A DNA stretch of 64,000 bases from Candidatus Bathyarchaeota archaeon (GCA_963753065.1 CAVWAQ010000002.1:145863-209862), one strand, 5' to 3'; shown: positions 7,908 through 55,586, numbered from the stretch's first letter. The notes: generated from the sequence alone by a model not told the origin. Made by a program: numbers and translations.

Positions 7908-8009
7908 GCCGGGGTCGGTCAGATGTGATGCGACCACCGAAGGCCGAACGGTTCAGGCGGCAGCCTGCAGAGCTGCAGTATATGGGTTCGACTCCCATCC
8001 CCGGCTCCA
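7908..8009 (+). tRNA. tRNA-Cys (anticodon GCA) with a 26-nt intron between positions 9 and 10
   Basis: 5' exon GCCGGGG-TC, intron about 7917-7942 (GGTCAGATGTGATGCGACCACCGAAG), then D arm GCCG/AACGGTTC/AGGC. Anticodon arm is GCAGC-CTGCAGA-GCTGC, variable loop AGTAT and T arm ATGGG-TTCGACT-CCCAT. The acceptor 3' strand CCCCGGC gives a perfect 7-bp stem with the 5' strand, followed by discriminator U73 (the Cys identity element) and an encoded CCA. The spliced length would be 76 nt. A second copy of GCCGGGG lies 13 nt upstream (7895-7901). Confidence 0.6.
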
Positions 8010-9082: not shown

Positions 9083-9193
9083 TGGCGGGCGGGGCAGGAT
9101 TCGAACCCGCGACTCCAGGCTCCGGAGGCCTGTGCCCTATCCTGGCTAGGCGTCGGGAGAAACTACGCAGTCTATACCCGCCCATACCCGCCC
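9083..9193 (-). tRNA. tRNA-Arg (anticodon CCG) with a 23-nt intron between positions 9 and 10; the upper coordinate includes an upstream duplicate of the acceptor segment
   Basis: Read on the minus strand: acceptor GGGCGGG-TA (9183..9175), intron about 9174..9152 (TAGACTGCGTAGTTTCTCCCGAC), D arm GCCT/AGCCAGGATA/GGGC with A14, G18G19, A20 and A21. Anticodon arm is CAGGC-CTCCGGA-GCCTG and T arm GCGGG-TTCGAAT-CCTGC. The acceptor 3' strand CCCGCCC is followed by G73 and an encoded CCA ending at 9083. The spliced length would be 78 nt. A second GGGCGGGTAT copy lies immediately 5' (9193..9184). Confidence 0.65.
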
Positions 9194-12800: not shown

Positions 12801-13115
12801 TCAGTCGCTCTTCTCGATCTTGATGTCTATGGTGGAGACGTTCCGCATGTCTCCTCCTTCGCCGATCACTTGTGTTCCGATCGTGATCTCCTTGACGGAC
12901 AGTTTGCCGCCGAAGAATCTCCTCCTGACAACCTCGACAACATCGACCGCTGTGCTAATCGCTCTTCCTCGAGCTTTAATGGTCAGGATCTTTGCTCCGC
13001 TCTGGTAGTGCATCATGACCGCAGTCGCGTAGGCCATTACGGGTTTCTTCCCGATGAGTATCGTATCAGGGGGGATGGGCTCTCTCGGGGCAATCGGCGC
13101 TGGCTTTTCTGTCAT
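12801..13115 (-). CDS. albA: Alba DNA/RNA-binding chromatin protein
   Basis: Core sequence DTILIGKKPVMAYATAVMMHYQSGAKILTIKARGRAISTAVDVVEVVRRRF...RNVSTIDIKIE. The ORF extends to 13226, but the Alba domain begins at the internal Met (MTEKPAPIA). Confidence 0.85.
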   Translation of the reverse strand: MTEKPAPIAPREPIPPDTILIGKKPVMAYATAVMMHYQSGAKILTIKARGRAISTAVDVVEVVRRRFFGGKLSVKEITIGTQVIGEGGDMRNVSTIDIKIEKSD

Positions 13116-13624
13116 GCAATGCTCACCTCCGAAACAGAGTAATCTTGGGGTAAGTGCAAGCCTATGCTTTCGAGAAGTTGACTTAAGCCTTACCATCCCA
13201 GGGTCTTCAAGCGTGAGGCAAAGCACGAGAATTGACGCAGTTGAGTATATTCGACGTGCTTCGTGAATGTCGTATTCTCCTCATGCTTTCACTGTATGGG
13301 CTTGTTCAGTGTTTCAGACGCCATTGTAGAATCGTCTGTAAAGACCTCAAATCATTCGATGGAGACACACAACGAGCGCCACTCCGCTGTGGTCTCTCCA
13401 ATGCGTCTCTTGAAAAACACAAGAATGAATCCTATTTAAGCACCGGATTTGTGAGTGGTTCCAACTTTCGCTCCTGCCTCATGATATGTTCGTTCTCTTG
13501 GACCTGAGAGGGACTTGTTGTGAGAAAGCATCTCTTGGGATCATACTCTTTTTGACAGCTTTCTTTCCAGAAATCTAATGGCACTAGGACCCCTAAACGA
13601 CGAACTCACAACTCAATTTGTGGG

Positions 13625-14293
13625 TTGCACAATCTAGGAGAGACAATCTTGTCATATGGCTTCAGCAACTGGGATGAACCACCGCTTCGGACGCGAATAA
13701 CAGGCAAGATCCATCGCGGTGAATCGTTGAACGAAAGACTGGCCGAGGCGATCTTCCGTCTGCAAGCTCAAGAGAATAGGCTCGCAGGGGCAGCGGCTCG
13801 GATGCAGCAGCACGACAAGGAGATGTTTGACAAGTGCGTGCGAGCTCAAGTTGCCAAGGATAATGCCCGAGCAGCAATGTACGCTAACGAGTGCGCGCAG
13901 ATCAGGAAGATGGCCAAGATAACATTGCAGTGCCAGCTGGCACTCATGCAGGCTTCCCTGAGACTCGAGACTGCTCGTGAATTCGGGAACATCGCTTCCA
14001 TGATGGCCCCTGTCGCATCGGTTGTCAAGTCAGTACAAGGGCACATCACTGGAATCATCCCTGAAGTGGGATTCGAGCTCGCCGAGATCGGAGAGGTGTT
14101 AAACAATGCCGTGTGCGACATTGGCGGCCCTCTCGGCTCAGATTCAGCAGTACAAGCCTCTGGTGAAGATGCACAAAAGATCCTCTCAGAGGCCAATGTC
14201 CTAGCTGAACATAGAATTCAGCAACACTTCCCAGAGATACCAACGGCTCCGTCTCCTCTGACTCAGAGGACAGCAGAGCAGGGATTCCAGTAG
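13625..14293 (+). CDS. ESCRT-III (Snf7/CdvB) family protein, paralog 1
   Basis: Helical-hairpin core ANECAQIRKMAKITLQCQLALMQASLRLETAREFGNIASMMAPVASVVKSV, followed by an acidic MIM-like C-terminal region (SGEDAQKILSEANVLAE). Paralogous to ORFs 15029 and 17474. Confidence 0.75.
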   Translation: MHNLGETILSYGFSNWDEPPLRTRITGKIHRGESLNERLAEAIFRLQAQENRLAGAAARMQQHDKEMFDKCVRAQVAKDNARAAMYANECAQIRKMAKITLQCQLALMQASLRLETAREFGNIASMMAPVASVVKSVQGHITGIIPEVGFELAEIGEVLNNAVCDIGGPLGSDSAVQASGEDAQKILSEANVLAEHRIQQHFPEIPTAPSPLTQRTAEQGFQ

Positions 14294-14322
14294 CAGTACC
14301 GAACCCTTCATGGTGGATACTG

Positions 14323-15015
14323 ATGGTAATGCTCGTAGAGGATGTTGGAAGATACCTAGGCAAAACGGTTCAAACCCCCTACAACACCCCCGTCGGAAAA
14401 CTGATTGGTGTAGACACAAACATTCGCAACGAAGTAACTCAAGTCAACGTCGAGCAGGAATCAGGAATCCTCGCGAAATACCCCGCCACGCAAGTGAAGG
14501 TGGAGAACGGGTCTGTCGTGGTTACGCCTGCGTGGAAGCACGAAGCTTCGGACTTAGAACGCGAGTACTCGACCGCGTCGAAGCGTATTACCGCGCTAAA
14601 GTCCCTCCTCTCCGACGGCGATATCGACACAACAGCGTATAGAGAAATGGCCAGCGAATATGAAGGCGCCATACATGCAATGGAAAGTCGCCGTATTGCG
14701 CTTGTTGATTCGCTCAAGGAAAGAACGCTGAAGCTGGAAGATGAAATACGAAGACTCCAGCTAGTATTGACAGACAACAAGCTGCTCTATTCGTCTGGGG
14801 TGGTTGAGGCGATTGCGTACAAAGACGCCTCTCAAATCATACACGGGATGCTGAACGGGCACCTTACTGAGAAGAAGGACGTTCAGGCAACGCTTGAGAG
14901 CTTGACCTCCTTGGAAAGAGGTCCGCAAGTACAAGACCAGACTTTGCCTCGTAGAATTGACCAAGGGATCCCAGATTATGTTGTTGTGAAAATCAACGAA
15001 GAGATGCCTGCATAG
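14323..15015 (+). CDS. cdvA: CdvA-like protein (N-terminal PRC-barrel-like beta domain plus coiled coil)
   Basis: The N-terminus LGKTVQTPYNTPVGKLIGVDTNIRNEVTQVNVE...VKVENGSVVVTP resembles the PRC-barrel of CdvA. A long coiled-coil segment follows. The gene sits immediately upstream of the CdvB and CdvC homologs. Confidence 0.6.
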   Translation: MVMLVEDVGRYLGKTVQTPYNTPVGKLIGVDTNIRNEVTQVNVEQESGILAKYPATQVKVENGSVVVTPAWKHEASDLEREYSTASKRITALKSLLSDGDIDTTAYREMASEYEGAIHAMESRRIALVDSLKERTLKLEDEIRRLQLVLTDNKLLYSSGVVEAIAYKDASQIIHGMLNGHLTEKKDVQATLESLTSLERGPQVQDQTLPRRIDQGIPDYVVVKINEEMPA

Positions 15016-15028
15016 GCAGTGGCACAAT

Positions 15029-15802
15029 TTGACGATAGTCGATAGAATCGTTCCGCATCTCCATCAGGTCCCCCTCAAGGATCAAATCGTCAAAGCGAGG
15101 TCTAGACTTGAAATTCAAAAAGATAGACTTGAGGGCATGGCAATCAAGATCCAGCAGAAGGATCAGGAGCTTCTCGAACGATGCGTTGGCGCACAGGCGA
15201 ACAATGATCTTGCTCGCGCACGATTGTACGCGAACGAGTGCGCCGAGGTAAGAAAGATTGCTCACATAATTATCAGCGGCCAACTCGCGCTTGAGCAGGT
15301 TGTCTTCAAGCTCGACATGGCGCTTGAGTTCGGAGAACTCTTGGGCGACATGAAGCCCATTGTCGGCATTGTGGCTGAAACAAAAGGAAGGATCTCCAAC
15401 GTTGTTCCGCACATAGCGAACGAACTTGGAGAGATAAACACCATGCTACAGGACCTCAGCGATGAAGCTGGTCCGGTTCTCGACAACGCAGGAGCTGTCC
15501 AGACAACCAGCGAAGATGCGAAGAAGGTCCTTGAGGAGTCGTCTGTGATTGCACAGGAGCGGCTGTCTCAGACATTTCCCAAACTGCCGGAGCTTACTCT
15601 CGAACACAGGAACGCTTCGCCTGAGCCGATGCCTGCTGCGGCGAGCGAGACAGAAGTGGACCGGCGCGTCTACGAGTACATCAAGAGCCACCAAGGGAAC
15701 CTTCACGTATCCGATGCAGCACGCCTCATCGGGATACCGTCAGACAGAGTGAAGATCGCCCTCGACCGGCTGGAAAGTGAGGGAAAGGTAGTTGTCGAGT
15801 AG
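15029..15802 (+). CDS. cdvB: ESCRT-III (CdvB) family protein with a C-terminal winged-helix domain
   Basis: ESCRT-III core YANECAEVRKIAHIIISGQLALEQVVFKLDMALEFGELLGDMKPIVGIV plus C-terminal RVYEYIKSHQGNLHVSDAARLIGIPSDRVKIALDRLESEGKVVVE, a wH domain like that of crenarchaeal CdvB. It overlaps the cdvC start by 11 nt. Confidence 0.75.
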   Translation: MTIVDRIVPHLHQVPLKDQIVKARSRLEIQKDRLEGMAIKIQQKDQELLERCVGAQANNDLARARLYANECAEVRKIAHIIISGQLALEQVVFKLDMALEFGELLGDMKPIVGIVAETKGRISNVVPHIANELGEINTMLQDLSDEAGPVLDNAGAVQTTSEDAKKVLEESSVIAQERLSQTFPKLPELTLEHRNASPEPMPAAASETEVDRRVYEYIKSHQGNLHVSDAARLIGIPSDRVKIALDRLESEGKVVVE

Positions 15803-17009
15803 CACTCCACACAGGAGCCCGAGCAGCCTTCAGACAGTCGGATCTCCTTCTCCCTTTCGTTCTGAGACCAGATCGGGTTCGGCCTCTGAAGAGCTCGAGA
15901 GCTTAGCCGTCCGCTACGCGAACGAGGCGATCCAATTTGACCGACAGGGTTCGAAAGGGATGGCCATATCACGCTATCAGAGGGCATCTGAGGTGCTGCT
16001 CAAGCTATGCTCGCTGTACCCCGAAGCACCAACGAACAAAGTCTACATGGAGCACATCGAGAACTTCCGGCGAAGAATCAAGGAACTGAACGATCAAGGC
16101 TCGCGTGTTGGTGTAAATCCCTCCTCGCAGCTCGCTGTTGAGCAGATAGAGCATTTCGCTCCTATCCAGAAGCCGAATGTTAGATGGAACGACATTGCCG
16201 ACCTGCGCGACGCTAAGATGGCTGTTGAGGAATCTGTAGTCTATCCGGCTAGGCGTCCGGACTTGTTCCCGCTGGGGTGGCCTCGGGGGTTACTGTTTTT
16301 CGGCCCTCCAGGCTGCGGCAAGACCCTTCTAGCGGCTGCAATTGCGACTGAAATCAATGCCGATTTCTTCTGTGTCGACGCCGCAACTGTAATGGACAAG
16401 TGGCTGGGTCAGTCCGAGAAGAATGTCGCGAATTTGTTTCAGGACGCTAGGCGGGCGTCGGGTTCGGGGCGCCCTGCGATAATCTTCATCGACGAAGTGG
16501 ACTCTCTTGTTGGAATTAGGGGGGACGAGGTGGGCGGAGAAGTGCGTACCCGGAACCAATTCCTCAAGGAGATGGATAGCATTTCGGACAAGTCCAACCC
16601 ATCCCATGTGTATGTTGTTGGTGCAACAAATAAGCCGTGGGCACTTGACGAGGCGTTCATCCGCCGCTTTCAGAAGCGAATATTCGTTCCGTTGCCTAAC
16701 GTTGAAGCGCGAACTGAACTCGTCTCCATATACTCGAAAGACCTGACCACCAGTGGTGATGTTAGCACCGACGAGCTAGTCCATATGACAGAAGGCTACT
16801 CTGGAAGCGATATACGCGACATACTACAGGGAGCACAGATCAAGGTCGTCCGGGAGCTTTTTCAGTCTCAGAAGATCACAGAACGTTCACGGCCGAGAGC
16901 CATCTGCATGGAAGATATTCGAGAGGTCCTTCGCAAACGACGTCCAAGCGTGTCGCCGGAGATGCTTCGATTCTATGACAAGTGGTTTGAAAGGTACAAG
17001 GCGTTGTGA
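15792..17009 (+). CDS. cdvC: Vps4/CdvC AAA+ ATPase (MIT domain plus meiotic-clade AAA)
   Basis: N-terminal MIT-like helices (AVRYANEAIQFDRQGSKGMAISRYQRASEVLLKLCSLYPEAP), Walker A GPPGCGKT, Walker B IIFIDEVD and a Vps4-type C-terminal helix. Confidence 0.9.
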   Translation: MSSSTPHRSPSSLQTVGSPSPFRSETRSGSASEELESLAVRYANEAIQFDRQGSKGMAISRYQRASEVLLKLCSLYPEAPTNKVYMEHIENFRRRIKELNDQGSRVGVNPSSQLAVEQIEHFAPIQKPNVRWNDIADLRDAKMAVEESVVYPARRPDLFPLGWPRGLLFFGPPGCGKTLLAAAIATEINADFFCVDAATVMDKWLGQSEKNVANLFQDARRASGSGRPAIIFIDEVDSLVGIRGDEVGGEVRTRNQFLKEMDSISDKSNPSHVYVVGATNKPWALDEAFIRRFQKRIFVPLPNVEARTELVSIYSKDLTTSGDVSTDELVHMTEGYSGSDIRDILQGAQIKVVRELFQSQKITERSRPRAICMEDIREVLRKRRPSVSPEMLRFYDKWFERYKAL

Positions 17010-17559
17010 GGTCATGCAAATGTCAGCAGATTCAACCGACCTGAAGATCCTTGCAGAACTGGTGGAGAATGCGAAATCATCGTTCGTAGATATCGGCAAG
17101 AAGCTCGATCTTCACCCGAACGTGGTTGCATACAGAGTAAGCAAGCTCGAACGTTTAGGGATAATCAAGGACTACACGACTCGGCTCGACTTGGAGAAAC
17201 TCGGCCTTTCGGAGCAGGTCTTTGTTGCTGCGAGCTTACCAGGCAACTCCCAGCGCGAGCAAATCCTTAAAGAGATCGCCTCAATGCCTCAGACAATCCA
17301 AGTTGTGAGCTCCCTAGGCGAACCTGGAAACATCGTGTTCCTGGCTGGAAAGAACAAGGCTGATGTCGACAAGACAATGTGGAGGCTCAGAAACATGAAT
17401 GTGAAAATCGAGTACACCGGCTCGATAGTGCGCACCTATGATGAGGGAGGCCTTTGCAACTTCCTGAAACTTCTTGCGAAAGAATTCGAGGAGTCGAGGA
17501 GCCTTTCCAGACAGCCGGTCCCGGATCAACCTTGGGAAGGGGGGAAAGAGAGTGTTTAA
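16975..17559 (+). CDS. Lrp/AsnC-family transcriptional regulator (HTH plus RAM domain)
   Basis: HTH segment DLKILAELVENAKSSFVDIGKKLDLHPNVVAYRVSKLERLGII followed by a RAM fold. The true start is probably the internal MQMSADS. Confidence 0.8.
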   Translation: MTSGLKGTRRCEVMQMSADSTDLKILAELVENAKSSFVDIGKKLDLHPNVVAYRVSKLERLGIIKDYTTRLDLEKLGLSEQVFVAASLPGNSQREQILKEIASMPQTIQVVSSLGEPGNIVFLAGKNKADVDKTMWRLRNMNVKIEYTGSIVRTYDEGGLCNFLKLLAKEFEESRSLSRQPVPDQPWEGGKESV

Positions 17560-17572
17560 GGAAAACAGATCG

Positions 17573-18160
17573 ATGATGGGCAAAGTCAAGGAAGCTTTTC
17601 ACCCCACACCAGTCCGCAAGCGGATCATGGATGCGCTGCTAAGCCTCAAGATGCAGCTTTCACGCTTGGACAGGACAGCTCAGAAGATGCAGCAACGTGA
17701 CGCTACACTTTACAGCAAGTGCGTAACGGCGGTGCAGCAGAAGAACACAGAACTCGCGTCCATATATGCCAGCGAATGCGCCGAGATACGCAAAGTCGCG
17801 AAGGTCGTCCTGCACAGCCAACTCGCGTTGGAGCAAGTCGCTCTGAGACTGGACCTAGTCCGCGAATTCGGTGATGTCGCGCAGACCATGAGACCTGTCG
17901 CATCCGTTGTCAGGACGATCAAGACGCAGCTCCAAGGCATACTCCCTGAAGTGTCGCTTGAACTTGCATCAGTGAACGAGTCACTCGAAGACCTCGCATC
18001 ACAAGTCGGCGACGCCGCGGAGGAATCCTTTGCGGTACCCGTTTCAGGCGAGGACGCACAGAAAATCCTCAGCGAAGCAAATATCGTCGCAGAGCAAAAG
18101 ATGCGTGAACGTTTCCCAGACCTGCCCCCTGTTCCTGTGCAAGAAGCCAGAATCCAGTGA
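17573..18160 (+). CDS. ESCRT-III (Snf7/CdvB) family protein, paralog 3
   Basis: Core ASECAEIRKVAKVVLHSQLALEQVALRLDLVREFGDVAQTMRPVASVV and C-terminal SGEDAQKILSEANIVAE. The ORF opens at 17474, but the likely start is MMGKVKEAF at 17573. Confidence 0.75.
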   Translation: MMGKVKEAFHPTPVRKRIMDALLSLKMQLSRLDRTAQKMQQRDATLYSKCVTAVQQKNTELASIYASECAEIRKVAKVVLHSQLALEQVALRLDLVREFGDVAQTMRPVASVVRTIKTQLQGILPEVSLELASVNESLEDLASQVGDAAEESFAVPVSGEDAQKILSEANIVAEQKMRERFPDLPPVPVQEARIQ

Positions 18161-49088: not shown

Positions 49089-51507
49089 CTACTTGGTAGT
49101 GGGTGCGGGTTTCTTTCGGCTTCGCCAGACCACTGCGCCTACCAGTGCAATGATGACTACGATTACGACGCCGAGCACCGTTGCGTCGGTAGACGTGGAC
49201 GAAACCGCGATGGGATCTGTCATGGTTTGTGGAAGCAATTGTCGACCGTTAAGCCAGTCATCTCTTCGTCGCTGGTTATTTCTTGGAATTTCGCATGGGT
49301 CGAGTTTGATTGTGCCATTTTGTATTGCCTGCACCAAGTCCGGGGCAGGGACGATACCAGTGAAGTTTGCCCGATACCATGTCGTGCCAAAGGCTGGTGG
49401 TGCGGGTGCTGCGAGTTGGTAGTTACTTGCGTTGTCGCTCATTGCTGGCGCGAAGTTGGTCCATGTGTTGCCACCATCTGTACTCTGCTGGATCATTACT
49501 AGCACGTTCGCCACCGGGGCGCGTCCGGTGATGGTGACGGAACCAGTGCCCAGCATTGGGCTACCAGCGTATGCGATCTGCGCTGGAGGAGGTCCGACTT
49601 TGACCGTATAGCCGGCTTGCTGCAGCAGAGTTGCTGCGGCGTTAACGTCGTAGCTGTCCGGTTTGAGGGTCGGGTCGTACCACTGTCCCCAGCCTGGACC
49701 AAGGAAGGTCGCCAATGGGTATGCGGATCCAGCCAGGAGTTGGCTTACGATCAGGTCCCTCGGGATGAGGTGACTGATTGCCTTGCGTATCAGGCGAGCG
49801 GCTTCGCCTGCCTGCGAGGGGTTACTCTTCCCAAGGGGCGTATCGACACCTGTACCAAAGACAGGATTGTTCATGTTGAATCCCATCTCCTGCCAGCCCA
49901 GCTCAGTTGCAGTTATGATGTTGATATTGGGAATCTGCTGTAGTGTTGGCTTGTCTTTGGCGAGTGCATAGTTGTAGTCCAACAGGTCCACTTGACCGTT
50001 CTTCAATGCTGCGATAGCGGCGTCCTTGCTGCCAATCCATTGCACTTTGTAGGTGTTGACCGTGAATTGGCCGAGAGCTTGCAGGCCAGTAGCGTTCCAG
50101 TATCCCGGATACTTCACTAGGGTTGCAATATTGTTCGTAAAGTCATAATCCTTAAGATAGTATGGACCAGCGCCGACGGGACCAACTGCAGTGTAGCTGC
50201 CTGAACCGCCGTACCGTGTCGCATCCCACTTGTACGTGTAGGGCGCGGAAGCGGTGCTGAACGGTGCGCTGTCCCAGCCAGCGAATGGAAAGCCTCTCCA
50301 TTATGTGCATAGGTAGCGGTGCGAACGCGGCGTAGACGGTGCTTGTGAAAGCATAGATTGCTGGTATATGGAACTGGAATTCATATTTGCTAATCGCTTT
50401 CCACGAACCATCAGTCTCAGGAACCTGCGGGCCGGTGTTGTCATCTATTCGGGAGGTTCCGTTGAGGAATGTGAATGTGACTTTGCTGCCAAGGTATTGC
50501 ACGTTGCTTCCCAGTCCGACCGATGCGGTGTTGGGGTTGGTCAACGCATATTGTGTGTAGACGAAGTCGTCTGCGGTGACCTCAACTCCGTCTTGGAATG
50601 TGACGCCTGGCTTTATGTCAACAGTCCATGTCAATCCGTCTGCACTTGGAGTGATCCTCTGTGCCGTGCCCATTATGTAGCTGGAAGTCCGCGGATCTGG
50701 TTCCTGTAGGTATCCTCCCATTATTTGGAACCATACGTAAGCTGCGTAGAAGCTGTTTGAGGAAGCAGTGTTTGCGGGATTCAGCGTGTTGCCCGGGAAG
50801 ATGTTGCTTCCTTCAGCCATAGTGAGACTGTCTGATCCTGCCCAGTGCTGAACGTCGGGGAAAGTAACCTCACTGTAGACGTTAGGGTCACCCCAAGCCG
50901 TAAATTTCGCGGCTCTCGGGACGGGGTCAATTGTCTCGTAGATATAGTTGTACGGGGCGTCGTTGAACACGATCTCTTGGAACTGATGAGTCAGTTGGAC
51001 CTGGGTCGCGGGATCTGTTGAGCTGTAGAGCTTGTCAAATATGGCGTTCACTTGAGGGTTATTGTAGTACGCGTAATTGCTCCCGGAGGGCGGGAGATAC
51101 GCGGGCCTTCCGTCAAAGTTGGCTCTGAAATCTGGCACGAATGCGGTATAACCCCATCCTATGAAGCCGATATCGTAGCCACCTTGGCTGAACGATGATC
51201 CCGGAGGAGCCGTCGCGGCGAACAGTCGATTCGAAAGCTGGTCGAAGTTTACGTAGAACAGTTTCGCATCGATTCCTAGTGAGATCATGTTGCTGGTGAT
51301 GATGCTGGAGTACTGTCTCCTAACGGTATTTCCGCCGGTCGGCGCGATTAGCGTCACCGAAAACAGACTTGGCCCCTGGGCGTATGCAGTTGTGAAAAGA
51401 CATGGCACTGCACTTGAAGCAATAACGTATATCAGGAGTGCCATAGCTATGCCTTGAACAATATACTTTGCTGATCTATCCGACATTTTCATATCACGTA
51501 AGCACAA
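49089..51507 (-). pseudogene. ABC transporter substrate-binding protein (family 5, oligopeptide/dipeptide/nickel type) with a C-terminal TM anchor; apparent frameshift near 50300-50315
   Basis: The N-terminal half (ORF 50152..51507) has a signal or TM segment and SBP_bac_5-like sequence that ends in out-of-frame residues. The second half (49089..50117) continues upstream in its own frame to a stop at about 50303 (…FAGWDSAPFSTASAPYTYKWDATRYGG…) and ends with the TM anchor VVIVVIIALVGAVVW. Confidence 0.65.
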
Positions 51508-51694: not shown

Positions 51695-52664
51695 TTGGCT
51701 AGCCTCATCCGTTACATCATTCGCCGCTTGCTCTTCATGATTCCCGGTATTCCTGGGTGTTGCGATCCTGACCTTTGGTGTCGGAAATGCGGCGGGAAAC
51801 CCGCTGGATCTCATTCGAGCAGGCCTAAAAAACCCGAGCCCCGCAGTGCTGGATGCGCTCAGGCACTACTACCACCTTGACCAGCCCCTTTGGGAGCGTT
51901 TCCTTCTCTGGCTTTGGGATCTGTTGCACGGGAATCTTGGCGTGTCGATTTCTGGAAGGCCTGTAGCTTCTTCGATTGGTGCATGGACTGTGACTACGTT
52001 GGAGCTGCAAATTCTAGCGCTGATACTTTCAGTCGCTATCGGAGTGCCAGTTGGTGTCTACTCCTCGAAGCATCAGTATTCGAAGACTGATTACGCGATC
52101 ACTTCAGTCGCGATTTTCGGGTATTCGATGCCAACTTTCTGGCTCGGGATTATATTGGTTATAATCTTCTCATTCAACTTGGGCTGGCTGCCTAGCAGCG
52201 GAGCGGTCAGCGTAAGCTACATGTGGTGGGGAACACCTCTTCTCGACTGGATTGCGCACCTGATTCTACCTACGCTCGTTCTAACGTATGTGAGCTTGGC
52301 TACTATAGTTCGTCTTGTGCGAGCCAATATGCTTGAGGTAATGCGACAAGACTACATCCTGGCAGCTCGTGCGAGTGGCCTCAGTGAACGTACGGTTACC
52401 TACCGCTATGCGTTGAGAAATGCGATTAGTCCAGTGGTGACAATTATCGGACTTGGATTTGGCGCCGCGCTCGGTGGCGCGCCTGCACTTGAAACCACTT
52501 TCTCGTGGCCGGGATTGGGTTACGCGTTCACCCAGGCGGCCCTCACCTTGGACATTCCTCTTGTTGAGGGAATAACAATCGTCATCACGGTGATGGTCTT
52601 GATCGCTAACTTGATCACGGACTTGTCATATGCTTTGCTTGATCCACGCGTAACGATAGATTGA
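51695..52664 (+). pseudogene. ABC peptide transporter permease (DppB/OppB-like) with an apparent frameshift near 51745-51760
   Basis: N-terminus MASLIRYIIRRLLFMIPGI (frame of ORF 51695). The continuation FLGVAILTFGVGNAAGNPLDLIRAGLKNPSPAVLDALRHYY... is in the frame of ORF 51846..52664. Confidence 0.65.
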
Positions 52665-52668
52665 GGAA

Positions 52669-53565
52669 TTGTGTTTGTCTGAGAAACAGCGTACCCGAGG
52701 AGCTAGTACGTGGTCCCTTGCGTGGCGTCGGTTCAGGAGAAACAAGTCCGCTCTTGTCGGGAGTGCAATTGTTGTCTTCTTCATTGCAATTGGCATATTC
52801 GGACCTTATGTTGCCCCTTACCCGGCTCGAAGTTACCTGTCATTATACACGGGAGATGCCGGGTCTCCTCCGTCATTTAAGCACCCATTCGGAGTTGAAG
52901 ACTCGGGCATAGATGTCTTCAGCGAGACTATTCATGGGACTAGGAACGATCTATACGTCGGGCTTGCGGCCACTCTTGTTACGATGATTATCGGAATCGC
53001 GGTGGGCGCTGTCGCTGGATACTTCAAGGGCGTTGTATCGGATATATTGCTCGGGGTAATACAAGTCTTCTTCGTCATTCCGGTTCTACTGCTCATTCTC
53101 CTATTCGCGAGAGTGTTCTCCGTGTTAGTTTTCAAGGGCTTGGGTCTGACGCTGATTGTCCTCATATTGGCGTTTTTCGGATGGTCTCAAATTGCTTTCA
53201 TCGTCAGGGGAGAAACGCTGAGACTGAAGGAGATGGAGTTTATTCAAGCGGCCCGCTCTCTGGGAGCAGGCTCCTTCAGGCTTCTCTTCCGCCACATTGT
53301 TCCGAACATCTTGTCACCAGTCATCGTGATTGCAACGCTTGACATCGCAGGTTTCATCTTGACAGAAGTGGTTGTGAGTTTCCTAGGCTTTGGCGACCCG
53401 AACACCTCAACGTGGGGTCTGCTTCTAAACGAGGGTTTCTCTTTCGTCAGGACTACTTGGTGGGTTTCGCTGTTTCCTGGTTTGGCCGTAGTGATATGTG
53501 TTTTAGGGTTCAACCTGATGGGCGATGGATTATCGGACGCGCTAAACCCTAGGCTGCGTGAATGA
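52669..53565 (+). CDS. ABC peptide transporter permease (DppC/OppC-like)
   Basis: N-terminal WRRFRRNKSALVGSAIVVFFI, an EAA-like loop (IQAARSLGAGSFRLLFRHIVPNI) and six TM helices. Confidence 0.85.
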   Translation: MCLSEKQRTRGASTWSLAWRRFRRNKSALVGSAIVVFFIAIGIFGPYVAPYPARSYLSLYTGDAGSPPSFKHPFGVEDSGIDVFSETIHGTRNDLYVGLAATLVTMIIGIAVGAVAGYFKGVVSDILLGVIQVFFVIPVLLLILLFARVFSVLVFKGLGLTLIVLILAFFGWSQIAFIVRGETLRLKEMEFIQAARSLGAGSFRLLFRHIVPNILSPVIVIATLDIAGFILTEVVVSFLGFGDPNTSTWGLLLNEGFSFVRTTWWVSLFPGLAVVICVLGFNLMGDGLSDALNPRLRE

Positions 53566-54568
53566 GAGGGGCCACCTGTTGACAGAAAGACTCCTGGAAA
53601 TCTCCGATTTGCGCACCTACTTCTTCACGGAAGCAGGCGTGGTAAAGGCATTGGATGGAATGTCCCTGGAAGTCAACAAAGGACAGACAGTCGGCCTTGT
53701 GGGGGAATCCGGGTCAGGCAAGTCTGTAACTGCTCAATCTGTGCTGCGTATAGTTCCCCGGCCGGGACGCATAGTGGATGGATCAGTCAAATTCGAAGGC
53801 GAAGAGCTCCTTTCGAAAACGGAAAATGAAATGCGAAAACTTAGAGGCCCCAAGATGGCTATCGTATTCCAAGATCCAACTACGTCACTTAACCCTATCT
53901 ATACTGTGGAGAAACAGCTCACGGATATTTTGACACTCCACCGAGACCTGGGGAAATCCGAAGCTTCCGAGAGAGCATTGTACCTTCTGGAACTCGTTGG
54001 AATTCAGGAACCAGAGAAAAGACTCAGGACTTACCCTCATGAATTAAGCGGCGGCATGAAGCAGCGTGTTGCAATAGCGAGGGCTTTGTCATGCGAACCG
54101 ACACTCCTCTTCGCTGATGAACCAACAACGAACTTGGACGTCACTGTCCAGGCTCAAGTCCTAGAATTGCTTAAGAAGTTGCAGAAGGAGCTGAAAATGA
54201 CTATGGTTATGATTACCCATGACATGGGGATCATAGCCGATATGGCCGAACATGTCACCGTCCTCTACGCAGGCAAAGTCTTGGAGGTCGCCGACACGGT
54301 CACACTATTCAAGTCGCCGAAGCATCCATACACCGAAGCACTTCTCAAAGCTGTCCCCAGTGTAAAGCAGACGCGTACGCTTGAGGTCATACCCGGCAAC
54401 ATCCCGAACTTGATAGAACTTCCTACTGGCTGCGTGTTCCACCCCCGATGCAAGTACGCCAAGGATGTTTGCGTGAAAGAGGAACCTTCGTTGGAGAAAG
54501 CAGAAGATGGACACTACGCGGCATGTCACCTATGGCGGGAATTGAAGCTTGAAGGCAGAAGTGGCTGA
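53558..54568 (+). CDS. ABC transporter ATP-binding protein (DppD/OppD-like)
   Basis: Walker A GESGSGKS, signature LSGGMKQR, Walker B LLFADEPTTNLD and the oligopeptide C-terminal domain. Confidence 0.9.
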   Translation: MNERGHLLTERLLEISDLRTYFFTEAGVVKALDGMSLEVNKGQTVGLVGESGSGKSVTAQSVLRIVPRPGRIVDGSVKFEGEELLSKTENEMRKLRGPKMAIVFQDPTTSLNPIYTVEKQLTDILTLHRDLGKSEASERALYLLELVGIQEPEKRLRTYPHELSGGMKQRVAIARALSCEPTLLFADEPTTNLDVTVQAQVLELLKKLQKELKMTMVMITHDMGIIADMAEHVTVLYAGKVLEVADTVTLFKSPKHPYTEALLKAVPSVKQTRTLEVIPGNIPNLIELPTGCVFHPRCKYAKDVCVKEEPSLEKAEDGHYAACHLWRELKLEGRSG

Positions 54569-55586
54569 GATGCAGGCATCGACGGATCCGAAAGGGCTGA
54601 TCCTCCAAGTGAGGTCCCTCGTTAAGCATTTCGATGTCATTGAACGTGGTATCCTTCGAAAGAAAAAAGCGGGTGAAGTACACGCTGTTGACGACGTCTC
54701 GTTCCATATCCTCAAAGGCGAGACACTCGGACTTGTTGGAGAAAGTGGATGTGGCAAGACAACCGTTGGCAAGGTAATCCTTTACCTTGAAGAGCCAAGT
54801 TCAGGTTCAGTGATATTCGAGGGCGAGGATGTTTTCGAAGTCTTCGCAAATGGGAATCAAAACGAATCAAAAAGGGTTAGACGCAAAATGCAGATGGTGT
54901 TTCAGAACCCTTACAATTCTCTGGATCCACGTATGACTGTCTACGATATCATAAGCGAAGCATTTACGATCCATAAGAATCTACCGAAAAACGAATGGAA
55001 AAGTCGCGTCTACGAGCTTCTGAGGATGGTGAATTTAGAAGAGTACCACGCAGAGCGATATCCACACGAGTTCAGTGGCGGTCAGAGGCAGAGAATCGCA
55101 ATCGCGCGTGCTCTGGCAGTTGATCCGAAGTTCGTCATTCTAGATGAACCAGTTTCGTCGTTGGATGTTTCGATCAGGGCTCAAATCCTGAATTTACTTA
55201 TAGATCTGCAACAAAAGAAACATCTGTCTTATCTTTACATTTCGCACGACTTGAGTTCAGTTCGTCAGATCAGTGAGCGCGTTGCGGTCATGTACCTTGG
55301 GGAAATTGTTGAGTTGGCAGGCTCAGAGCAGTTGTTCGACAAACCCTTGCATCCATACACTCAGGCTTTGATTTCCGCGGTTCCAGCCCCGGACGTTGAT
55401 CACAAGACAACTCGAATTATCCTTCCAGGCGAGGTACCTAGCCCGATCAATCCTCCGCAAGCGTGCAGATTCCATCCGCGGTGCCCACACGCCACGGACA
55501 TATGCAGACAGGTTGCCCCAAGACTTGAGGACAAGTTGGTCAAGGAGCATTTCGTTGCTTGCCACCATGCGGATAAGTTCATCTAG
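54549..55586 (+). CDS. ABC transporter ATP-binding protein (DppF/OppF-like)
   Basis: Walker A GESGCGKTT, signature FSGGQRQR, Walker B ILDEPVSSLD and the oligopeptide C-terminal domain. Confidence 0.9.
   Translation: MKAEVAEMQASTDPKGLILQVRSLVKHFDVIERGILRKKKAGEVHAVDDVSFHILKGETLGLVGESGCGKTTVGKVILYLEEPSSGSVIFEGEDVFEVFANGNQNESKRVRRKMQMVFQNPYNSLDPRMTVYDIISEAFTIHKNLPKNEWKSRVYELLRMVNLEEYHAERYPHEFSGGQRQRIAIARALAVDPKFVILDEPVSSLDVSIRAQILNLLIDLQQKKHLSYLYISHDLSSVRQISERVAVMYLGEIVELAGSEQLFDKPLHPYTQALISAVPAPDVDHKTTRIILPGEVPSPINPPQACRFHPRCPHATDICRQVAPRLEDKLVKEHFVACHHADKFI

Follow-up and report, generated by a model that had tools for sequence, protein, structure and literature searches.

Six adjacent genes on the chromosome of an uncultured soil or peat archaeon of the Candidatus Bathyarchaeia very probably make up a complete ESCRT-type (Cdv) locus for membrane scission and cell division. 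They occupy positions 13625-18160 on the plus strand of the window, the 64,000-nucleotide stretch of DNA that was analysed, as six co-directional, tightly packed ORFs encoding, from 5' to 3', (i) an ESCRT-III paralog without a winged helix (wH), (ii) CdvA, (iii) a wH-bearing CdvB, (iv) the CdvC/Vps4 ATPase, (v) an Lrp/AsnC protein and (vi) a second wH-less ESCRT-III paralog (Table 1). An earlier note, made from the sequence alone, had claimed a complete Cdv/ESCRT locus with the cdvA-cdvB-cdvC order of Sulfolobus: all six ORFs are present, the order is as described, and profile and structure matches support every component. Profile searches back the assignments, as do the solved Sulfolobales Cdv structures that the proteins match and two AlphaFold models. 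Neighbouring genes are spaced by -11 to +29 nt, the lower value being an 11-nt overlap of the cdvC start with the cdvB stop, and this tight spacing and overlap suggest that the locus is co-transcribed and translationally coupled. The arrangement is far beyond chance, because the same gene order is found in every related locus examined.

Table 1. Features of the cdv locus and its upstream region (window coordinates).
Feature	Position	Strand	Evidence
Upstream wH-less ESCRT-III paralog (CdvB1/B2-like), 214 aa	13649..14293	+	NCBIfam CdvB1/B2 E = 4.9e-53
CdvA, 230 aa	14323..15015	+	Pfam CdvA PF18822, 65 bits vs cut-off 30
CdvB, 257 aa	15029..15802	+	PDB CdvB2 9s97, CdvB 9s9j; NCBIfam CdvB model
CdvC/Vps4 AAA+ ATPase, 405 aa	15792..17009	+	NCBIfam CdvC E = 5.4e-151; PDB 4lcb
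Lrp/AsnC (FFRP) transcription regulator, 181 aa	17014..17559	+	Pfam HTH_AsnC-type E = 2.7e-10
Downstream wH-less ESCRT-III paralog (CdvB1/B2-like)	17552..18160	+	NCBIfam CdvB1/B2 E = 3.4e-56
Conserved non-coding leader	13520..13640	+	Nucleotide-level conservation across loci
Leader motif GTGAGAAA	13520-13527	+	
Leader block TTGACAGCTTTCTTTCCAGAAAT with TTTC-N6-GAAA inverted repeat	13552-13574	+	
Leader 15-bp dyad TTGTGGGTTGCACAA	13618-13632	+	
Leader GGAG	13637-13640	+	
TATA-box-like element CCTATTTAAGC	13431..13441	+	Core conserved in the window's clade

The three ESCRT-III proteins have one core in common, as had been proposed: they are 38-42% identical in pairwise comparisons and align through the ANECAQIRKMAKIT / ANECAEVRKIAHII / ASECAEIRKVAKVV stretch. 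Pfam Snf7 (PF03357) stays below its gathering threshold of 27.3 bits, with 13.7 for the upstream paralog, no match in CdvB and 25.6, slightly under the cut-off, for the downstream paralog, but the NCBIfam CdvB1/B2 model matches all three strongly (E = 5e-53, 2e-44 and 3e-56). Assignment to the ESCRT-III superfamily therefore rests on NCBIfam, PDB sequence matches and Foldseek instead. The NCBIfam CdvA, CdvB, CdvB1_B2 and CdvC equivalog models are trained on Sulfolobales, and their cut-offs are missed by all the proteins (CdvA 85.6 vs 350; CdvB 118 vs 370; CdvB1/B2 151-190 vs 350; CdvC 502.7 vs 650). Together with the low Snf7 scores, this marks the proteins, at the level of sequence, as divergent family members and not strict equivalogs, so that neither wH-less paralog can be equated one-to-one with CdvB1 or CdvB2. 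Across related lineages the three genes fall into three positional orthogroups, which indicates that the triplication predates the sampled lineages. Directly behind helix 5, all three proteins carry an FP[KDE][LI]P motif that lines up with the ends (FPSLP/LPDLP) of CdvB2 and CdvB from Sulfolobales; FPxLP is a candidate MIM2-like motif for the CdvC MIT domain.

CdvB consists of a five-helix ESCRT-III core (residues 16-182), the motif FPKLP (183-187), a variable linker and a three-helix wH (207-257). Its sequence matches CdvB2 (9s97, E = 4.5e-33), CdvB (9s9j, E = 2.1e-20) and yeast Vps24 (E = 1e-5). In Foldseek the CdvB model matches the CdvB2 filament at E = 2e-10, with target-normalised TM-scores of ~0.8-0.87 for CdvB2 and closed CdvB, and resembles CHMP1B, IST1 and CHMP3 more weakly. 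Residues F183, P184 and L186 of the motif are invariant in 42 CdvB homologs. The C-terminal winged helix, which the earlier note had placed on this middle paralog, is assigned with moderate confidence from profiles and the model. The NCBIfam CdvB alignment runs over model positions 21-259 of 260, and a profile built from 24 homologous C-termini finds the Sulfolobus CdvB wH (2xvc_A) as its best PDB match, end to end, at E = 0.00099. Weak Pfam wH matches fall on residues 204-257 (RPA_C, E = 0.001; HTH_24; EAP30), and the C-terminus is modelled as three confident helices (207-250) with no beta wing.

The two wH-less paralogs flank the core genes. The upstream one ends in FPEIP, a MIM2-like motif; its ORF opens with TTG 13625, and the start most likely used is the conserved TTG 13649, preceded by the leader GGAG. 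The downstream one has a conserved C-terminal tail, FPDLPPVP...EARIQ, and starts at GTG 17552 (202 aa) or ATG 17573 (195 aa). The starts first annotated for these two genes and for the Lrp gene need small shifts.

The CdvA-like gene had been described as encoding a PRC barrel and a coiled coil, and both were found, together with a C-terminal tail: an N-terminal beta-barrel of the PRC type (residues 1-67) is followed by a coiled-coil domain of three helices (70-198), a disordered linker and a C-terminal motif. This motif, IPD[FY]VVV[KR], is conserved, and the linker that precedes it is variable and modelled with low confidence; IPD[FY]VVVK is a candidate ESCRT-III-binding peptide, consistent with E3B. 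The protein matches solved Sulfolobales CdvA in sequence at ~24% identity. CdvC, described earlier as a Vps4 ATPase with an MIT domain whose gene overlaps the wH-bearing one, has that domain (39-100) behind a Ser/Pro-rich N-terminal extension of ~35 aa, then an AAA domain (167-301), a lid and the Vps4 C-terminal helix. Pfam scores the MIT domain at 27.9 bits, a little short of the cut-off of 30, and finds AAA at E = 6.6e-39 and Vps4_C at E = 8e-4; the match to CdvC 4lcb (E = 6e-117) covers residues 35-405 and includes the MIT domain. TTG 15792 is the sole in-frame start 5' of that domain. A PRC barrel, a wH domain and ESCRT-III membership of the helical proteins, any of whose absence would by the earlier note's own account have undone it, are thus all in place.

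By homology with Sulfolobales, and following the CdvA/CdvB/MIM2 mechanism of Sulfolobus (PMC12818579), the steps of a division mechanism can be proposed for this locus. CdvA would polymerise via its PRC barrel and coiled coil, and its C-terminal IPDxVVVK would dock on the incomplete CdvB winged helix, bringing CdvB to the site of division. Next, the wH-less paralogs would co-assemble as the polymer that constricts. CdvC would bind, through its MIT domain, the proline-rich FPxLP (MIM2-like) motif at the core end of all three ESCRT-III proteins, and its AAA+ hexamer would pull out subunits, leading to remodelling and scission.

That the locus acts in division rather than in budding of vesicles or repair of membranes is not certain, because FtsZ homologs are reported in some Bathyarchaeia (PMC9723716). 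The locus might encode a genuine ESCRT machine used mainly to bud vesicles, repair membranes or release viruses, with FtsZ/SepF encoded elsewhere responsible for cytokinesis: in those Asgard and euryarchaeal lineages that possess both systems, ESCRT is proposed to serve sorting and vesicles (PMC11188069), and in Sulfolobales the same Cdv proteins also form extracellular vesicles. This is improbable, since CdvA is a component diagnostic of division-type systems and the locus is universally kept in a housekeeping context, beside ArgRS, Alba and YjbQ. Nitrososphaeria (thaumarchaea) such as Nitrosopumilus maritimus, whose system likewise comprises CdvA, several ESCRT-III paralogs and CdvC, also have FtsZ yet divide by Cdv. 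Furthermore, no FtsZ or SepF occurs among the large ORFs annotated over all but ~30 kb of the window.

Among the closest known systems, the Sulfolobales locus (S. acidocaldarius Saci_1374-1372; S. islandicus structures 9s9g, 9s9j, 9s97 and 4lcb) has the same order of cdvA, wH-bearing cdvB and cdvC. Common to both are a CdvA with PRC barrel, three-helix coiled coil and C-terminal peptide, a CdvB with core, MIM2-like motif and wH, a CdvC with MIT and AAA+ domains, and extra wH-less paralogs. In contrast with Sulfolobales, where these paralogs are dispersed, both flank the core genes inside the locus here, and an Lrp/AsnC gene is embedded behind cdvC. The sequences are divergent, the paralogs have no one-to-one match to CdvB1, B2 or B3, and the host is a mesophilic archaeon of soil or peat.

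Thaumarchaeal cdv genes are not known to form a single cluster, and the earlier note, taking the organism for a thaumarchaeon, had presented the clustering as unusual for its lineage. Neither the thaumarchaeal origin nor the unusual clustering is supported. That a thaumarchaeon (Nitrososphaeria), unlike its relatives, has retained or reacquired a cdv operon that is clustered as in Sulfolobus and includes a wH CdvB is highly improbable, although the proteins are of the TACK type, the window's G+C content of ~53% would be compatible with Nitrososphaera, and the earlier note had named PEF-CTERM and eS26 from other parts of the window in its favour. The nine species-level genome relatives, with CdvA 67-97% identical and the same gene order, are all titled Candidatus Bathyarchaeia or Bathyarchaeota MAGs, and the named Lrp orthologs and members of the CdvB cluster are labelled likewise at NCBI. 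Moreover, according to PMC10936438 none of the thaumarchaeal CdvB proteins carries a fused wH, and an arCOG08707 coiled-coil gene lies 5' of thaumarchaeal cdvC, where cdvB, with its wH, stands here.

In Bathyarchaeia, clustering is the rule and has already been catalogued for the lineage. Members of this group encode the full CdvABC set (PMC9723716), and a bathyarchaeal 'cdv locus' is mentioned by Makarova et al. 2024 (PMC10936438), whose tables give consecutive accessions for ESCRT-III, CdvA, ESCRT-III (the wH-type arCOG00453) and Vps4 in genomes BA2 (KPV61739-61742) and B24 (KYH37564-37567), the same run as in the window; the downstream Lrp and third ESCRT-III genes and the conserved leader go unmentioned in the text of that paper. 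The window's clade is a separate terrestrial group. The six-gene order is kept even in the other, more distant sampled clade, where CdvB is only ~40-49% identical, and recurs in three loci picked via Lrp alone and in dozens of metagenome contigs.

It is scarcely credible that the cluster is an envelope-stress locus whose three helical proteins belong to the PspA/Vipp1 membrane-stress type, given that no PspA/IM30 family match appears at E <= 0.1, that by sequence and by structure CdvB and CdvB2 of Sulfolobales match best, followed by eukaryotic Vps24, CHMP and IST1, and that MIM2-like motifs and linkage to a Vps4 with an MIT domain are present.

The Lrp/AsnC regulator noticed earlier does have an AsnC-type HTH (PF13404, E = 2.7e-10; PF13412, E = 3.9e-11; both over cut-offs) and most likely regulates transcription of the cdv locus. 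Its ORF spans 16975-17559, with the start at ATG 17014 or 17020. Like archaeal Lrp/FFRP regulators (Ss-LrpB, FL11, LysM; operators abcdeWWWedcba), it aligns with LrpC (E = 4.9e-11) and FL11, in PDB matches to ~residue 125; with FL11/PH1519 and the LysM model the alignment reaches ~residue 125-146. At E <= 0.1, Pfam finds no C-terminal RAM effector domain (AsnC_trans_reg, PF01037). Wherever a related locus extends far enough, the gene lies behind cdvC and ahead of the downstream ESCRT-III gene, in two of these loci with an additional ABC-ATPase gene behind it. Neither this position nor the conserved leader with its dyad was found described in the searchable literature.

In the leader, the 15-bp dyad TTGTnGnnnGCACAA adjoins the first gene's ribosome-binding site and occurs in 84 of 89 distinct leaders, and metagenome matches to the leader block lie at a fixed offset 5' of cdv loci in 94 of 120 cases. 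In its length and its outer TTG...CAA the dyad agrees with the Ss-LrpB site TTGCAA[AAT/ATT]TTGCAA (PMC2715240), but the innermost positions of the predicted dyad are not complementary and, in the window's clade, GTT forms its spacer. Further upstream, ~210 nt 5' of the first start codon, the CTATTTAA core of the TATA-like element shows no variation inside the window's own clade; in the more distant clade the element is not conserved. A second dyad, TGTGA-N3-TCACA, lies 5' of the TATA box in the window's clade.

The fixed position of the Lrp/AsnC gene and the conserved leader dyad hint at autoregulation. It is conceivable, if rather unlikely, that the six genes of the cdv locus form one self-contained operon under autoregulation, in which the Lrp/AsnC (feast/famine) protein would bind TTGTnGnnnGCACAA, and perhaps also the TGTGA-N3-TCACA dyad, so that expression of the division machinery would be coupled to amino-acid or nutrient status. 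If true, this would be a cell-cycle control logic unlike the RHH (aCcr1) and TFB2 circuits of Sulfolobales.

The cdv locus at 13625-18160 consists of six closely spaced ORFs, all on the plus strand and all present where the earlier note had placed them. The intergenic spacing, in order, is 29 nt, 13 nt, an 11-nt overlap (cdvB/cdvC), 4-10 nt, and an 8-nt overlap to a 13-nt gap. Some start codons proposed earlier are revised (upstream ESCRT-III paralog, Lrp/AsnC gene, downstream ESCRT-III paralog). TTG 13625 is rejected as the first gene's start codon: the protein likeness 5' of 13649 is accounted for by a conserved DNA dyad and GGAG. No further cdv genes turned up in the window when all its ORFs of 50 aa or more were searched by phmmer with every Cdv protein and the extra CdvA-like proteins of relatives.

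Features of the cdv locus, its leader and neighbouring regions (window positions unless a related locus, L015, L017 or L019, is named)
Feature	Position	Strand	Remark
Possible tRNA gene	7942-7998	+	Rfam, 36.5 bits
Possible tRNA gene	9094-9151	-	Rfam, 33.1 bits
Alba gene	12801-13226	-
Degenerate palindrome TGTGGTCTCTCCA	13388-13400
TATA-like CCTATTTAAGC	13431-13441		core CTATTTAA invariant; window's clade only
(A/G)TGAGAAA motif	13520-13527		kept in distant clade
Block TTGACAGnTTTCTTTnnnGAAAT	13552-13574		TTTC-N6-GAAA inverted repeat; kept in distant clade
19-codon ORF MALGPLNDELTTQFVGCTI	13578-13637
Candidate hairpin	13605-13625
15-bp dyad TTGTGGGTTGCACAA (also given as TTGTnGnnnGCACAA)	13618-13632		abuts GGAG and start codon; kept in distant clade
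Upstream ESCRT-III paralog	start TTG 13649	+	aligns with ATG in distant relatives; conserved GGAG precedes
cdvA	14323-15015	+
cdvB	15029-15802	+
cdvC	start TTG 15792	+	sole in-frame start 5' of MIT domain; overlaps cdvB stop
CdvC N-terminal extension	15792-15905	+
Lrp/AsnC	start ATG 17014 or 17020	+
Downstream ESCRT-III paralog	start GTG 17552 or ATG 17573	+
SBP_bac_5 ORF	49089-50117	-	one of two consecutive parts
SBP_bac_5 ORF	50152-51507	-	one of two consecutive parts
ABC permease and ATPase genes	51846-55586
Expanded-locus gene, L015	5015-6166	-
Expanded-locus gene, L015	12525-12869	+
Expanded-locus gene, L019	3767-5140	-
Expanded-locus gene, L019	10067-10771	+
Expanded-locus gene, L019	11421-12041	+
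Alba gene, L017	5962-6297	+

The product of cdvA scores above the Pfam CdvA gathering threshold, and its residues 6-199 match a solved Sulfolobales CdvA (E = 3.4e-16). The AlphaFold model (pLDDT 85.5) has a beta-barrel (residues 1-67), three long helices (70-198) and a disordered tail, in keeping with the identity given to the gene earlier. At the end of the tail, after a variable linker, stands a conserved IPD[FY]VVV[KR] motif; in Sulfolobus CdvA, an ESCRT-III-binding peptide occupies the same tail position (PMC12818579).

The three ESCRT-III proteins have 38-42% mutual identity, and the alignment of all three runs through the ANECA.(I/V)RK motif, as expected of the shared core attributed to them. 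Against the PDB, CdvB matches CdvB2 (E = 4.5e-33), CdvB (E = 2.1e-20) and yeast Vps24 (E = 1e-5), and Foldseek matches its model to CdvB2 and CdvB structures. Three observations give moderate support to a winged helix (wH) at its C-terminus: the last 50 residues are predicted to form three confident helices, the alignment to the NCBIfam CdvB model reaches the model's penultimate position, and a profile built from 24 homologous CdvB C-termini places the Sulfolobus CdvB wH (2xvc) at the top of 177,635 PDB sequences, aligned end to end (E = 0.00099). The flanking paralogs match the CdvB1/B2 model (E = 5e-53 and 3e-56) and both lack a wH. A PspA-type identity for these helical proteins is rejected on the family searches and the best sequence and structure matches. 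Directly C-terminal to helix 5, all three proteins carry an FP[KDE][LI]P motif, whose F183, P184 and L186 in CdvB are invariant among 42 homologs; it aligns with the C-terminal FPSLP/LPDLP of Sulfolobales proteins, the position of the MIM2 motif for the Vps4 MIT domain.

CdvC residues 35-405, MIT domain included, match solved CdvC (E = 6e-117), and profile and PDB matches identify the fifth gene as Lrp/AsnC. Ahead of the CdvC MIT domain lies a Ser/Pro-rich N-terminal extension of ∼35 residues; automatic public gene calls (349 aa) begin downstream of TTG 15792 and truncate the MIT domain. None of the outcomes that the earlier note named as refuting it (a cdvA product with no PRC-barrel fold, a neighbour with no wH, helical proteins outside the ESCRT-III/Snf7 superfamily) was observed. 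The NCBIfam Cdv scores all lie under the curated equivalog cut-offs and the Pfam Snf7 score under its gathering score, and these proteins are divergent family members, not strict equivalogs.

The gene identities in the earlier note are right; the lineage and significance are wrong. It took the host to be thaumarchaeal and, on that premise, the clustering to be unusual. A scan for CdvA relatives in which each species is represented by one genome gives nine loci (67-97% identity) from peat, soil and similar metagenomes, all Candidatus Bathyarchaeia or Bathyarchaeota, a label also borne by the named members of the CdvB and Lrp family clusters. Bathyarchaeia and Nitrososphaeria are separate classes; Bathyarchaeia encode a full CdvABC (PMC9723716), and a bathyarchaeal ‘cdv locus’ has been named (PMC10936438). 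In that paper's supplementary table the accessions run consecutively, both for BA2 (KPV61739 ESCRT-III, 61740 CdvA, 61741 ESCRT-III, 61742 Vps4) and for B24 (KYH37567 down to KYH37564). A thaumarchaeal origin is rejected on the Bathyarchaeia relatives together with the wH on CdvB, a domain fused to no thaumarchaeal CdvB according to PMC10936438; because relatives, family labels and literature all point to Bathyarchaeia, the premise fails, and with it the claim of unusual clustering, the block being standard in this class. Several near-identical Cdv and Lrp proteins (P0026, P0030, P0097, P0117, P0248, P0349) have been deposited as bacterial (Candidatus Acidoferrum sp., [Eubacterium] cellulosolvens, Candidatus Saccharimonadales), most likely because archaeal contigs were mis-binned into bacterial MAGs or contaminate them.

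Within the reach of each contig, all nine close loci have the order Alba, ESCRT-III, CdvA, CdvB, CdvC, Lrp, ESCRT-III, YjbQ. The same six-gene block occurs on contigs whose CdvB homologs are just 39-49% identical, often with the neighbours that it has in the window (ArgRS, PMT-type glycosyltransferase, Alba, YjbQ), and in three contigs picked by Lrp similarity alone (62-65% identical) the Lrp gene again separates cdvC from the last ESCRT-III gene. Across three distant loci (L013, L015, L017), conservation of Lrp (53-65% identity) is close to that of CdvC (58-65%) and exceeds that of CdvA (35-40%) or CdvB (40-48%). The paralog phylogeny called for in the earlier note was obtained within Bathyarchaeia: in a neighbour-joining tree of the ESCRT-III genes from 11 loci, the paralogs separate by position into three orthogroups whose internal branching is congruent, so that the triplication is older than the sampled bathyarchaeal lineages.

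In one bathyarchaeal subgroup (L015, L019) the locus is expanded: an ABC-type ATPase gene separates Lrp from the last ESCRT-III gene, and a short CdvA-like gene comes next. Directly upstream is encoded an additional long CdvA-like protein, whose disordered middle is rich in Pro, Thr and Glu and whose C-terminus resembles a zinc ribbon (CxxC...CxxC); extra CdvA-like proteins are described in the literature as encoded outside the cdv locus. The Alba gene beside the cdv locus has opposite orientations in the window's clade and in the other bathyarchaeal clade (L017, L022, L024); the leader remains with the cdv genes in both.

Elsewhere in the window, two Rfam tRNA matches cover model positions 9-63 only, and no tRNA in the window is predicted by ARAGORN; the two matches may represent archaeal tRNA genes that are atypical, truncated or interrupted by introns. 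A pair of neighbouring ORFs matches successive stretches of Pfam SBP_bac_5 (profile 5-98 and 136-281) beside ABC permease and ATPase genes. The pair looks like a substrate-binding protein gene broken by a frameshift or stop, and may be a pseudogene or result from an assembly error.

The ∼220 nt 5' of the first cdv gene are conserved as nucleotide sequence between genomes that share only 59-97% identity in their Cdv proteins. The conserved leader (13380-13650) is also seen at related loci L006-L012, L017, L020 and L022-L024 and at 94 of the metagenome loci L025-L144. When metagenomes were scanned with the block, of which 19 bases were specified, at least 120 contigs matched; among the 120 matches listed, 94 have an ESCRT-III gene and CdvA at fixed downstream offsets and 26 are unrelated. 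Among the same matches, TTGT-N6-CACAA lies at a fixed offset in 84 of 89 distinct leaders and TGAGAAA is present in 68 of 89, positions outside the search pattern and so free of ascertainment bias. The strict-form dyad occurs once in the window. Two relatives (L007, L010) carry a perfect 13-bp palindrome, TGTGATCTTCACA, of the form abcde-N3-edcba, ∼45 nt 5' of the TATA-like box; it is limited to the window's clade, and the window has a degenerate version.

Three readings of the leader can be weighed. A structured RNA is rejected: a cut-off as loose as E ≤ 10 brings no Rfam match, folding energy is no better than that of shuffles (z = -0.65), and no two-sided, compensatory pair changes were found in candidate stems among the relatives compared. 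Within the TTTC/GAAA stem, a G-C to G-U substitution is the sole one compatible with pairing, and relatives disrupt the candidate hairpin without compensation. A leader peptide is unlikely too. The 11-codon ORF that begins at (A/G)TGAGAAA varies in length and peptide in the distant clade, and the motif is therefore better read as a nucleotide signal; the 19-codon ORF, which within the window's clade differs at third codon positions, is probably not a gene, its ATG being ATA in the distant clade. With no Rfam match, excess folding, covariation or conserved small ORF, the leader is more likely a protein-binding DNA or RNA signal than a riboswitch or leader peptide.

Archaeal Lrp-type regulators bind dyads of the form abcdeWWWedcba, as in the Ss-LrpB site TTGCAA[AAT/ATT]TTGCAA (PMC2715240). 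Since the cdv dyad has the 15-bp length and outer TTG...CAA of that site, the co-encoded Lrp is the obvious candidate binder, as a lead only. The searchable literature yielded no link between an Lrp and a cdv locus.

By analogy with Sulfolobales (PMC12818579; bioRxiv 10.1101/774273; PMC11796394), CdvA filaments would template CdvB through contact between tail and wH, the wH-less paralogs would form the constricting polymer, and Vps4 would engage the MIM2 tails, so that the polymer is remodelled and disassembled. Domain content, motifs and synteny are established for the window's locus; the mechanistic steps are carried over. In Bathyarchaeia the machine may carry out cytokinesis or may serve mainly for membrane scission of other kinds; FtsZ homologs are reported in the class.

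This is a standard bathyarchaeal cdv locus, in a lineage already known for full CdvABC, and its residual value is descriptive: all three ESCRT-III paralogs, CdvA, Vps4 and a dedicated-looking Lrp travel together in Bathyarchaeia as a single block, conserved along with its leader, so that the lineage offers a ‘complete Cdv operon’ in compact natural form. The regulatory lead suggested by the leader and Lrp sequences is modest, and offers a testable candidate for division regulation in an uncultured archaeal group.
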